From Sulfurospirillum sp. (lineage in GTDB: Bacteria > Campylobacterota > Campylobacteria > Campylobacterales > Sulfurospirillaceae), in NCBI GenBank assembly GCA_045047115.1, contig JASFYR010000025.1:1-48661 (forward strand): a stretch of DNA of 48,661 nt, read 5' to 3'. Positions 6,865-48,661 of the stretch are shown here, piece after piece. A program made the translations under genes and the position numbers. Below the pieces are notes generated by a model. It saw nothing but the letters and a program-made list of their open reading frames with translations. It made no database searches and was not told the origin of the DNA. How positions within the stretch are numbered: the first letter of the stretch is position 1; each line of letters opens with the position of its first letter.

Positions 6865-7101
6865 CTACTCAGCTTTTAAACTATAAGCTTTTACTAAAAA
6901 TCCCCTTAATTTTCTTGCTTGATAATCAAGCTTATGAAAGTGGTTATATACACTTTTTGCATCCAAAGTCGGATTTGAAGAGAAATCATAAGCGATACCT
7001 TTTTTATCTTTTGGAATATTTGTATCTAAAAAATTGTAAAAATCAGTCCTAATCTTGATGAGATCTTCAAGCTCTTTTTCTATATCATATCTCTTTTCCA
7101 T
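6865..7101 (-). CDS. Small conserved hypothetical protein (loosely CmeU-like)
   Basis: 78-aa ORF with AAGGT SD and TGCTAAAAT extended -10 (7121-7129), abutting alr. Family resemblance is from memory only. Confidence 0.65.
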   Translation of the reverse strand: MEKRYDIEKELEDLIKIRTDFYNFLDTNIPKDKKGIAYDFSSNPTLDAKSVYNHFHKLDYQARKLRGFLVKAYSLKAE

Positions 7102-7144
7102 TACATACCTTTTTTATAGAATTTTAGCAAATATGGCATAAGGA

Positions 7145-44061: not shown

Positions 44062-44409
44062 TTATAAAAACTCTCCATCGACATACAGCCATCTATCTTT
44101 TGCTTTTATAAATCTGCTCTTTTCAATAAAGCTATTGTCGATCTTTTCACAAAAAACAGTAGCTTTAAATGTCACAAAAGCCTCTTTTTCCCCATCGCTA
44201 AACTCTTTTAGTTCACTCTCGTCTAAATCTTTGTTTGAAGAGGTTTTGATGAGATACTTTATGTCTCCTGTTGCATAGGCGCTATACCTACTCTTCATCA
44301 GTTCCAATGCACTTTTTGGCAAAGCTCCCTTATGAAATATGGCACAACATTTTTTGTACTTTTTTCCACTTCCACAAGGGCATAGAGAGTTGATGGTAAA
44401 TTTTTTCAA
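44062..44409 (-). CDS. ychJ: YchJ family SEC-C motif protein (short)
   Basis: CPCGSGKKYKKCC, LMKSRYSAY, FVTF.A, E.S.F....W.YVDG. Confidence 0.85.
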   Translation of the reverse strand: MKKFTINSLCPCGSGKKYKKCCAIFHKGALPKSALELMKSRYSAYATGDIKYLIKTSSNKDLDESELKEFSDGEKEAFVTFKATVFCEKIDNSFIEKSRFIKAKDRWLYVDGEFL

Positions 44410-45680: not shown

Positions 45681-47054
45681 CTAAACAGTCTTTGAAAATC
45701 TTCTTTTGCTCTCGGGTATCTTTTTAAGATAAGCATCAAAAGGCATAGAGATGTTTCTTATAAGTAGAGTTCCTGTTGGATTGACTGTTATCTTTTTACA
45801 CTCCTTGTCTATCTCTACAAGCCCCTCAGCCACAAAAGATCTCAAGTCCTCTATGGCATCGCTAAAATAGTCAAAAAAATCAATCCCAAACTCCCTCTCG
45901 ACTCTTGCGATGTCAAGCTTGAAGTTACTCATTAGTTCCATAATCACAGCTTTTCTAAGCACATCATCATCATTCAATTTCAAACCCCTGTGCACAGGTA
46001 AAATTCCATTGTCTATGGCATTTTCATACATCTTCATATCTTTAAAATTTTGCACATAGTGAGCTACGCCTTCACCGATACTGGTCAAGCCAATTCCCAC
46101 TAGGTCAGCTCCGCCTTTTGTAGTATATCCTTGAAAGTTTCTATGCAATTCACCCTTTTCTATCGCCAAAAAAAGCTCATCATCAGGTTTTGCAAAGTGG
46201 TCCATTCCTATCATCCTAAGACCATTTGAGCTTAGATAATCTATGGTATATTTTAAAATTTCCAATTTCTCACTAGGCCTTGGGAGTGTTGTCTCATCTA
46301 TCTTTCTCATAGTCTTTTTCATCCACGGAACATGAGCATAGTTAAAAACGGCAAATCTGTCAGTATCTAGCAAAAGAGCCTTCTGCAGTGTCTTTTTAAA
46401 AGTCTCGAGGTTTTGATACGGCAATCCATATATAAGATCCATATTTACAGACTCTACTCCTGCATCTCTTGCCATTTTTACAGCATTTTGAGTAACTTCA
46501 AAGGGTTGAATCCTGTGTATTGCTTTTTGCACGGTATCATTAAAATCCTGCACACCAAAACTGACACGATTAAATCCACCTCCGACTAAAACATCGACCT
46601 GCCCTTTTGTCAAAAATCTAGGATCAATCTCACAACTAATCTCGGCTTCATCTGCAAAATTTTTAAAATATTTTCTTATGAGCTTTATGATTATATCTAA
46701 CTGCTCTGCACTAAAAAAAGTAGGAGTTCCACCACCAAAATGCATCTGTATAACCTCTCTGCTTGTATCGAGATGTTTTGAGAGAATTTCGAGTTCTTTT
46801 TCAAGATAGCCTATATACCTCTCTTTTTTATCATCTTTACTCGTAAAAACAACATTGCATCCACAAAAATAACAGGCGCTTCTACAAAATGGCAAATGAA
46901 AATACAGAGATAATGGTCTCTTTTTGTCTTGGTTTTCCAAGATATCAATATAAGAACTTGCATCAAAACTCTCATTGAACTCTGGTGCTGTCGGATAGCT
47001 TGTATATCTTGGTCCCGGTTTTGAATACTTTGAAAAAAGTTCGAAATTTATCAT
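45681..47054 (-). CDS. hemN: Oxygen-independent coproporphyrinogen III oxidase
   Basis: GPRYTSYPTA, CRSACYFCGC, HFGGGTPT, IGMDHF, RNFQGY. Confidence 0.97.
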   Translation of the reverse strand: MINFELFSKYSKPGPRYTSYPTAPEFNESFDASSYIDILENQDKKRPLSLYFHLPFCRSACYFCGCNVVFTSKDDKKERYIGYLEKELEILSKHLDTSREVIQMHFGGGTPTFFSAEQLDIIIKLIRKYFKNFADEAEISCEIDPRFLTKGQVDVLVGGGFNRVSFGVQDFNDTVQKAIHRIQPFEVTQNAVKMARDAGVESVNMDLIYGLPYQNLETFKKTLQKALLLDTDRFAVFNYAHVPWMKKTMRKIDETTLPRPSEKLEILKYTIDYLSSNGLRMIGMDHFAKPDDELFLAIEKGELHRNFQGYTTKGGADLVGIGLTSIGEGVAHYVQNFKDMKMYENAIDNGILPVHRGLKLNDDDVLRKAVIMELMSNFKLDIARVEREFGIDFFDYFSDAIEDLRSFVAEGLVEIDKECKKITVNPTGTLLIRNISMPFDAYLKKIPESKRRFSKTV

Positions 47055-47138
47055 TTAACTGTCTCCTTAAACTTGAGCAAAGCCCAAGTTAAATTCCTCT
47101 CACTAAAGCTTATGCTTTGCATAGAATTTATCATTTAA
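47045..47138 (-). repeat. Structured ~80-bp intergenic element, copy 1, with 14-bp direct repeats
   Basis: AATTTATCATTTAA at 47045-47058 and 47125-47138; two hairpins; homologous to 48559-48661. Confidence 0.8.
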
Positions 47139-47636
47139 TTACCTTATTATTTGTTGTGTGGATTGGTTGGCAAATAGATCTTTCAGGTTTAAAAAGAGGT
47201 TGGGGTGCTCTTTCTTTATCTTTCTTAGAAGTTTTTCTAAGTCTATATTGACTGTTTTTGAGTTATTTTTTTTAAGTGCTAGTTTTTTTATCTCATCCAT
47301 AGCTACCGTCCAAACATCCTGATAGTCTATAGGCACATGCTGCAAGATAGTCTTTTCTAATTTCAAATCAAAATTATTTTGTTGCAACTCCCTAAAATTT
47401 TCTATCAACTTGTTCATAGTATCGATAGAAACCATTGCACGCAACTTTTGGTTTTCATCTATAACAAACCATGGCTCCTTGTTGTCCCAACTTCCACTTT
47501 TTAGACTAAGCATTTTTACATCAGGATTATCAGTATCTTCAATCTCTATAACAGTCTCGTACTTTTTTTTATTACTTCCAAAGTACTCATCTATACTGTC
47601 TAATTTATCAAATACACTTATATCTTTTTTATCCAT
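47139..47636 (-). CDS. DUF2603-like conserved Campylobacterota protein
   Basis: L..GSW...EPW, KLEK.I.Q..PID..DVW.VAM, K.EHPNLF; lies between argF and hemN. Start at 47654 is also possible. Confidence 0.8.
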   Translation of the reverse strand: MDKKDISVFDKLDSIDEYFGSNKKKYETVIEIEDTDNPDVKMLSLKSGSWDNKEPWFVIDENQKLRAMVSIDTMNKLIENFRELQQNNFDLKLEKTILQHVPIDYQDVWTVAMDEIKKLALKKNNSKTVNIDLEKLLRKIKKEHPNLFLNLKDLFANQSTQQIIR

Positions 47637-47637
47637 T

Positions 47638-48561
47638 TTACTCTCTCTTTTCATCTAGCCAAACCATCAGGCCTTTTTGTGCATGCAGCCTGTTTTCAGC
47701 CTCGTCAAAGACTATATTCGAATATCGCTCAAGTATCTCCTCGCTTACTTCATATCCTCTATATGCAGGCAAACAGTGTAAGAAAATAGCATCTTTTTTA
47801 GCGTATGAGATCAAAGCATTATCAACTATAAAACCCTCAAAATCCTTAACTCTTTGCTCTTTTTCATCCTCTTGTCCCATAGATATCCAAGTATCTGTCG
47901 TGACAACATCTGCACCATTGACTGCAACTTTAGGGTCATTTGTATATATCACGGCTCCACCACTTTGCTCACATAGCATCTTTGCATCTTCAATGATCTC
48001 ATCCATCGGCTCATACCCTTTTGGTGTAGCAACTCTGAGCTCGAAGCCTAGTTTGGCAGCTAACATCATCCATGAGTGCGTCATATTGTTGCCGTCACCA
48101 ACATAAGCAACTACCGGGTTTTTGTCTTTACCATATTCTATCATAGTCAAATAATCTGCCAAAAGCTGTACCGGATGATACTTGTCGGTCAAACCATTGA
48201 TGATAGGCACTTTTGAGTAAGCTGCAAACTCATCTAAAACGCTTTGTGAATATGTCCTGATCATCACCATATCAACCATGCGACTTATCACTCTTGCGGA
48301 GTCTTTCATCGGCTCACCACGACCCAACTGCAAGTCATTTGAAGACAAAAACAGTCCTTGACCTCCAAGCTGATGGATACCCACCTCAAAACTGATCCTG
48401 GTTCTTGTACTGCTTTTTTCAAAAAGCATACCTAAAGACTGCTTTTGGAGATATGGTATATAGTTTTTAACTTTAGCCTCTTTTTTAATCTTGATACCTA
48501 AATCAATAATCTCCAGTATTTCTTCTTTTGTAAAATCATACAGTGATAAAAAATGCCTCAT
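47638..48561 (-). CDS. argF: Ornithine carbamoyltransferase
   Basis: [40 protein letters not shown]. Confidence 0.97.
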
Positions 48562-48661
48562 ATTATTGTCCCCTTTAAAAGGAGCAAAGCCCCTTTTAAA
48601 TTCCTCGCGACTGAAGCTGCGCCGTTGGCGAGAAGATTACTATTTATTGTCCCCTTTAAAA
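48559..48661 (-). repeat. Structured ~80-bp intergenic element, copy 2 (tandem, truncated by window edge)
   Basis: TTATTGTCCCCTTTAAAA at 48563-48580 and 48644-48661 (81-bp period); two hairpins; shares GAGCAAAGCCC and TTAAATTCCTC with copy 1. Confidence 0.8.

Follow-up and report, generated by a model that had tools for sequence, protein, structure and literature searches.

A hairpin-bearing repeat stands immediately in front of argF at the end of a 48,661-nt stretch of Sulfurospirillum DNA (the window), and a second copy stands in front of hemN. What is this element, and what has been kept in it: a fold, a strand, a reading frame or a peptide? The preliminary description of the window had proposed selection on structure, strand and frame, and tandem units appended to the upstream gene as a C-terminal tail. 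The window is the entire contig C25 (JASFYR010000025.1) of a genome (G000) of 2.14 Mb in 41 contigs, 100% complete by markers. The two copies belong to a real, undescribed, MIRU-like repeat family, and no description of it was found in the text of open-access papers; repeat consensus sequences for an epsilonproteobacterium are given in supplements of PMC3733652.

The copies in front of argF and hemN

The minus strand from 48661 to 48558 contains the tail of one repeat unit, followed by a complete unit before argF. The terminal unit (48558..48644, minus strand) matches the covariance model with 92 bits, its sequence being within the model's own alignment. The 3' end of the preceding unit (48643..48661, minus strand), composed of the hairpin-2 foot, Shine–Dalgarno sequence (SD) and spacer, is cut by the contig end. 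Hairpin 1 (CGCC-AAC-GGCG; 48620..48630, minus strand) varies in sequence among copies, with two-sided changes at 4 of 4 pairs. The conserved core GCTTCAGTCGCGAGGAATTT (48598..48617, minus strand) is mostly unpaired in the consensus fold and harbors an internal SD-like GAGGA. Hairpin 2 (48574..48600, minus strand; 27 nt) has 12 base pairs, a TTT loop and one G-T pair, and ends at the SD; in the alignment of copies, 93.5% of its cells are paired and 10 of its 12 pairs show two-sided changes. The AAGGGG SD (48570..48575, minus strand) is supplied by the element, as indicated by its sequence and by the element-derived right junction in filled/empty gene pairs (see below). The ATGA at 48558..48561 (minus strand) joins the argF start (ATG at 48561-48559) with the stop of an upstream reading frame (uORF), and argF itself (47638..48561, minus strand) encodes ornithine carbamoyltransferase (TIGR00658, 393 bits, over the cut-off). 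Both hairpins, including the TTT loop and the single wobble, the terminal SD and the frame LKGTINSN...LKGTII*, which is open to the window edge and ends on the argF ATGA, are present as the preliminary description gave them.

The second copy (47051..47136, minus strand; 79 bits), which likewise has the hairpins claimed for it, lies between a DUF2603 gene (47139..47654, minus strand; PF10788, 157 bits) and hemN (45681..47054, minus strand; oxygen-independent coproporphyrinogen III oxidase, TIGR00538, 651 bits). Its uORF of 27 codons (47051..47134, minus strand) begins 4 nt after the DUF2603 stop, at the retained native start, ends on the hemN ATGA with a start-to-start distance of 80, and has no Pfam match. 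The hemN site is empty in four other genomes (G001, G007, G011 and G013). The two copies had been said to carry the same frame, which holds relative to the ATGA stop but not for the core, read as ASVARN at argF and SFSER at hemN. Each window copy folded alone does little better than shuffles (z of -1.24 and -1.92), so the structural support comes from covariation within the family. A search of Rfam (E≤5) gave no match on the element and two chance matches inside argF; a consensus scan found no promoter-like site within either window copy, and a terminator scan found none in them. Elsewhere in the window, runs X1 and X2 have a 33-nt in-frame insertion with a 9-nt duplication at 44198-44206, inside an ORF at 44062-44409, and diverge from the window left of 44051.

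The window edge is the contig end, and the sequence beyond it was reached on contig C35, which starts with hemB. The array of the argF copy continues toward hemB there, and a contig from a strain about 98% identical bridges the window end, running directly into the C35-type unit to give two units; counted from the last bases of the window, the G000 array probably holds at least three. hemB ends in ...KRGQ*, and a separate ATG one base later opens the unit frame. The proposed tail on the upstream protein thus fails at argF. The repeat before argF is real, although it is not specific to argF: it is the last unit of a hemB-argF array and one member of a genome-wide family. Among 15 hemB-argF loci, four are empty (G001, G010, G011 and G013) and ten are filled. 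Four filled loci have a left ATG, and their uORFs, of 82 codons across three units in G003 and of 41, 28 and 28 codons in G007, L064 and L075, all end on the ATGA of argF. In G015, G017, G071, G086 and G100 the unit directly follows the hemB stop and there is no uORF.

A sense-strand repeat family at start codons

A profile search of G000 identified 90 units in 70 arrays (E≤0.1), where arrays split by contig ends count twice and gene calls were made within the analysis. The downstream gene lies on the same strand in 59 of the 60 scored arrays, and the 60th array is in sense orientation within P12 of the RNase P RNA. Copy orientation is therefore not random, and the proposed selection on strand is borne out here and in the pairing bias given below. 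In the 59 arrays with a scored upstream gene, this gene is co-directional in 55 and divergent in 4, and no array lies between convergent genes; the only opposed pair of units points apart, at two genes. A replication-strand rule was considered and rejected: 30 arrays are leading and 8 lagging, against 710 and 507 genes (p=0.011; 32 arrays undetermined), so orientation follows the gene, with a mild bias to the leading strand. Many arrays are partly decayed, and arrays vary in copy number and hairpin variant. A unit lies within 130 nt of 19 of the 82 contig ends. At least three other palindromic repeat families also break the assembly (ends of C2, C9 and C40; C10/C30; C13/C35; L139:22-102, 822-864).

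The exact core occurs in at least 109 stretches of the genome collection and, among the matches listed, mostly in Sulfurospirillum-like Campylobacterota. It is found in 37 of 251 genomes of the order (reversed control, 1), and the covariance model matches 41 of 141 genomes of the order, in 10 of 25 families. The model gave no match in 108 genomes of two large families, and two core matches in Acidobacteria fail it. The phage and plasmid collections searched gave no match; viral contigs gave 0 and 2 core matches, and both of the two fail the model. The downstream genes from relatives are unrelated, with 36 of 40 having Pfam hits to about 30 different families.

Both hairpins covary. In 76 aligned copies, which share a near-invariant core, 90.9% of cells pair (67.1% when shuffled), two-sided changes occur at 14 of 16 pairs, and the covariation score is 0.647, compared with 0.223 in shuffled (0 of 500) and at most 0.175 in slid alignments (76 sequences, relatedness uncorrected). 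This agrees with the earlier proposal of selection on structure. The pairing is also strand-specific. With equal scores for G-U and A-C, 126 distinct hairpin-2 sequences contain 102 G-U and 19 A-C on the mRNA strand (hairpin filter passed by 189 of 206 core matches); the corresponding counts are 30 and 5 for hairpin 2 in G000 alone, and 15 and 4 for hairpin 1. The strand composition (G*T/A*C of 0.78-0.98) does not account for the G-U excess, which therefore argues that the fold matters on the sense strand, as RNA or single-stranded DNA. Computed accessibility of the SD and start behind hairpin 2 is 0.62 and 0.68, against 0.50 and 0.52 for other genes (31 and 250 starts), and hairpin 2 is thus predicted to leave the element SD open. 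In some G003 units (L175:5909-5925, 7029-7129), the core and the 3' arm of hairpin 1 can form a stem before the U-run, a weak terminator-like alternative fold, and in other units the 5' flank can pair with the core.

The unit of about 80-83 bp is composed of ATG, hairpin 1, core, hairpin 2, SD and spacer, and is present or absent at orthologous gene starts. In 18 genes that have the unit in a relative but not in G000 (pairs between species), the left junction resembles the empty site upstream of the ATG (0.48-0.53 against a null of 0.35-0.41, p≤0.008) and not after it, and the right junction resembles it after the ATG (0.78-0.85 against 0.32-0.56) and hardly before. These matches place the crossover at the start codon, so that the native SD-spacer-ATG is left in front of the insertion and the gene receives a new SD-spacer-ATG from the unit. 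The empty orthologue already starts with ATGA in 15 of the 18, compared with 54% of ATG genes (p=0.009; this and the preceding p-value are overstated, since units share ancestry and some genomes contribute more than one locus). At hemN and a few other loci, 13-15 bp around the start are duplicated, and there is an excess of left-right identity; a general long target-site duplication suggested by these was not upheld in the 18 pairs, where the general duplication is the start codon alone. Of 25 arrays in G003 (about 0.8 Mb, about 85% nucleotide identity to G000), 10 are shared with G000, 10 are empty there and 5 are without an orthologue; conversely, 11 of the 70 G000 arrays are shared with G003 and 5 are empty, the remaining 54 being outside the comparison. 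Shared sites often carry different variants. In the two contig sets searched from sequencing runs, no joint skips the unit, a result that weighs neither for nor against mobility.

Among 116 distinct terminal units of the SD type, 54 keep a left start with an SD and 62 are without a left start, so a relay from uORF to gene is not universal. In a larger set in which each left part and each gene counts once (60 of 67 uORFs), 42 of 60 end on ATGA, against 22.2±3.3 when left and right halves are recombined (0 of 3000 permutations reach 42, a contrast inflated by shared ancestry). A further 12 stop at most 8 nt before the start (null 13.2), 6 end early (19.8) and none continues in frame (3.8). The frames are thus not random, in line with the proposed selection on frame. 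The commonest start-to-start distances are 80 and 83, reached through several combinations of left and right parts, and the 81-bp period previously described is true of the argF array without being usual. Of the 42 coupled uORFs, 24 read the core in one frame and 18 in another. The peptide is therefore not the thing kept, and the motif 'SVARNL..ALL..KG', earlier put forward as a conserved tail, does not stand.

The SD-like core and the terminal SD with its start go together: among 142 terminal units, 121 have both, 15 have neither and 6 are mixed. The SD-less units are located slightly upstream of a native SD, often directly after the upstream stop, or in RNase P RNA. Among 27 RNase P genes from 26 genomes, four contain a unit in P12 (G000, G015, G016 and the second copy of G003), and two further P12 units occur in G071 and G086. 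These units (G000:C9:162528-162927, L133 and L219; others in L212, L216, L229, L292 and L293) thus come from six genomes and three genera; all are in sense orientation and without terminal SD, and form the top of the helix. Most members of the genus have a short P12. Repeat insertions are known from the P12 of cyanobacteria and from RNAs of Rickettsia. The P12 of G017 and that of G021 hold long insertions of another kind, made of several hairpins, among them a similar one with a TTT loop. The unit-bearing second RNase P RNA gene of G003 (G003:C1:2061-2497, L229) is divergent and lies on a short contig; it is either a duplication or a binning contamination. In G013 and G037 the sense rule is broken by degenerate copies that run antisense in the spacer between tRNA-Cys and tRNA-Ser (L281:1490-1583; L296) and end at the tRNA-Cys 3' end; the same spacer in G000 has no copy. 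Around the copies, Rfam gave only RNase P and tRNA matches.

How the repeat may spread

The repeat is probably a non-autonomous, MIRU-like mobile repeat. Its insertion at start codons is polymorphic, the SD and start are rebuilt, the stems are those of the sense strand and the frame is biased. Mobility is read from filled/empty comparisons between species; neither a transposition event nor a circle or transcript was seen, and no mobilising enzyme was identified. The host would tolerate insertions that keep the target gene translated, with bad frames being purged. Ribosomes may then start at the old SD, read a uORF of about 27 codons whose sequence is not fixed, and begin again at the ATGA; alternatively, the old start would decay and the unit's own SD be used. 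SD-like motifs would be lost from copies that give the gene no start, whether they lie ahead of a native SD or in P12 of RNase P.

For the movement itself, the weakest inferred part, we tentatively favor units looping out of tandem arrays and integrating by short SD-spacer-ATGA homology without a dedicated enzyme, a route to which we give a little less than an even chance. In its favor, the junction between units has the form of a consensus SD-spacer-ATGA, which would explain both position and orientation without such an enzyme. Campylobacterota have weak mismatch repair and natural competence, which would help short-homology integration. A simple crossover at ATG does not predict the 13-15-bp duplications at a few loci.

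A domesticated cis-acting RNA module, such as an RBS insulator, a 5'-stabilising double hairpin or a protein-binding site, selected by the host and spread by gene conversion, is an unlikely account of the family. It would fit the G-U bias on the mRNA strand beyond base composition, the near-invariant core, the computed accessibility of the SD behind hairpin 2, and the copies at argF (G015, G071, G086, G100 and G017) and in rnpB P12, which are kept across genera and fit either long retention or a host function. However, the target genes have no common function, close species differ in which sites are filled, many arrays are in partial decay, and the copies in RNase P RNA and antisense between tRNAs would be useless to an RBS module. 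Such a role is compatible with a mobile repeat as a secondary one.

The next most likely means of movement, after looping-out and short homology, is a class-2.1 (TIRYT) Y1 nuclease that recognises GGGGACAG at the unit end and moves the unit as a REP/TIR-like element of single-stranded DNA; we also regard this as improbable. On contig C3, inverted repeats on either side of a Y1 gene contain the TTAAAGGGGACA motif of the unit end, and this motif matches the GGGGWSAS consensus as described in PMC6006769 and PMC3733652. By a hand tally, such Y1 genes are found in 22 of 41 element-positive and 29 of 100 element-negative genomes (Fisher test; kin are not independent) and in 10 of the 12 genomes with at least 10 model matches. 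Unit end and Y1 repeats share an 11-13-nt motif, but no full unit flanks the Y1 genes or lies beside them; the motif is also a plain SD, and other families end in AAGGAGA. Moreover, close orthologues of the C3 gene occur in 3 of 31 genomes, a complete genome with 23 model matches (G013) has no match to it, and of the 9 genomes of family f14, 8 have the Y1 and none has the element. A search for an IS608-type guide/cleavage match gave nothing. In the genomes sampled, a TIRYT-type Y1 is neither necessary nor sufficient, and the association is a loose co-occurrence.

Several related observations were made on these loci. Two TIRYT-type Y1 genes (L022:1140-2010 and L023:1410-2270) have GGGGACAG or GGGGTCAG inverted repeats, and orphan remnants of Y1-repeat ends lie at several places, including the starts of C10 and C31 (12 motif matches). 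The C3 gene is located among toxin-antitoxin pairs including a YoeB-like gene, and one other palindromic family also occurs near the Y1 orthologue in G011. The IS608-type guide rule, as described in PMC3201880, was tried and rejected, since the foot bases of hairpin 2 do not predict the unit end without post-hoc choice. The IS200/IS605 element on C20 (L021:68-1899), whose tnpB has an internal stop, was likewise rejected as a mover: its ends are unlike the unit and have no other copies.

Rather doubtful, too, is a self-targeting, transposase-free repeat whose sense RNA or single-stranded DNA fold is the mobile form, with P12 of RNase P as a possible origin or feeder. Here the unit junction would mimic a consensus translation start, so gene starts would be its best homology partners, and each insertion would rebuild the target. 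In P12 the unit sits as a three-way junction; a PF00078 search found no reverse transcriptase in G000.

Two further readings are very improbable. Tandem units selected as a C-terminal peptide on the upstream protein would suit the frame that is open across the window, and read-through does occur in four arrays, three at frdC orthologues and one in a frame continuous with the downstream gene. True read-through is confined to one orthologous site, frdC-frdA, in three genomes (G000, G003 and L084): on contig C5 of G000 (L260:192-1100), the frame of FrdC, the fumarate reductase cytochrome b, continues across a decayed unit, which lengthens the protein by a real tail of about 25 residues. In other genomes, however, the frdC stop precedes the unit, and across the family the long upstream ORF has ended by the junction in 112 of 121 arrays, as hemB has, with the core read in two frames; of the tail claim, FrdC alone is left. 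SD sequences are also the insertion sites of the IS110 bridge-RNA recombinase, of which G000 has one copy, sitting in an SD, but the repeat as its passenger is at odds with a crossover inside the SD, antisense to the gene and with the native spacer left on the gene side, where the repeat crosses at ATG, with the lack of a model match at the IS110 locus and with a junction that by eye is unlike that of the unit. This single IS110 (L137:740-2200) lies antisense in the SD of a response-regulator gene and restores an SD at its end.

Relation to known repeats

In this repeat, the MIRU strategy recurs independently in a different phylum, where natural variants and empty alleles number in the hundreds. 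Within one genus, the translation starts of dozens of housekeeping genes have been rewritten and no genes split, although a protein occasionally gains a tail (FrdC) and the repeat has also entered a ribozyme. Two questions become testable: by what route RBS-bearing repeats such as MIRU and REP2 spread, and whether delivery of ribosomes is the sole reason for keeping a uORF whose sequence is not fixed. The repeat also breaks assemblies, and could serve as a typing marker.

Among known systems, compared by description, REP/BIME and TIR repeats are likewise short hairpins with covarying stems and tandem arrays, as far as described in PMC3733652, PMC6006769 and PMC8266576, and a GGGGACA motif is common to our unit and one TIRYT locus. 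Unlike REP/BIME, the unit has no GTAG/CGTC tag at the hairpin foot and forms no inverted dimers; unlike REP and TIR repeats, it is absent between convergent genes, is tied to start codons and, as a full unit, does not flank the Y1 genes, whose repeats share an 11-13-nt motif with it. A MITE was rejected, as the unit ends are not complementary and there is no fixed target-site duplication beyond the start codon. Pneumococcal BOX elements, in the account of PMC3049150, consist of modular tandem units that vary in number between strains and can form ORFs, as here. They have terminal inverted repeats with boxA/boxC ends, and pneumococcal repeats are enriched between convergent genes (PMC3049150), whereas the Sulfurospirillum repeat supplies translation starts. 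Neisseria REP2 and Borrelia IR-A/IR-B are dispersed repeats upstream of genes whose mode of spread is described as unknown (PMC3184786). They share with our repeat, as described there, two stem-loops, an RBS, an ATG and the absence of terminal inverted repeats. REP2 is 120-150 bp long, with a promoter and contact regulation (PMC3184786); in contrast, our unit is about 81 bp, lies mostly inside operons, forms tandem arrays with a coupled uORF, and has no promoter-like site in either window copy by consensus scan.

The closest known system is MIRU, as described in PMC12548453 and PMC3914561. MIRUs are mobile units that insert at start codons with an internal ORF coupled at -4 (PMC12548453), measure 46-101 bp with tandem copy-number variation at dozens of loci (PMC3914561), and have no known enzyme of their own in either account. 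The Sulfurospirillum repeat resembles them in start-codon insertion in one orientation (with rare antisense exceptions between tRNAs), in an ORF coupled to its target at -4 through ATGA in 42 of 60 copies keeping the left start, in a unit size within the 46-101 bp range and in variable tandem copy number at many loci. It differs in its host, AT-rich Campylobacterota instead of mycobacteria, in its two covarying hairpins with a strand-specific G-U bias, in the absence of a uORF start from about half of the SD-type copies, in an SD-less subtype, and in copies inside RNase P RNA and between tRNAs. The repeat works like a MIRU but is not a MIRU.
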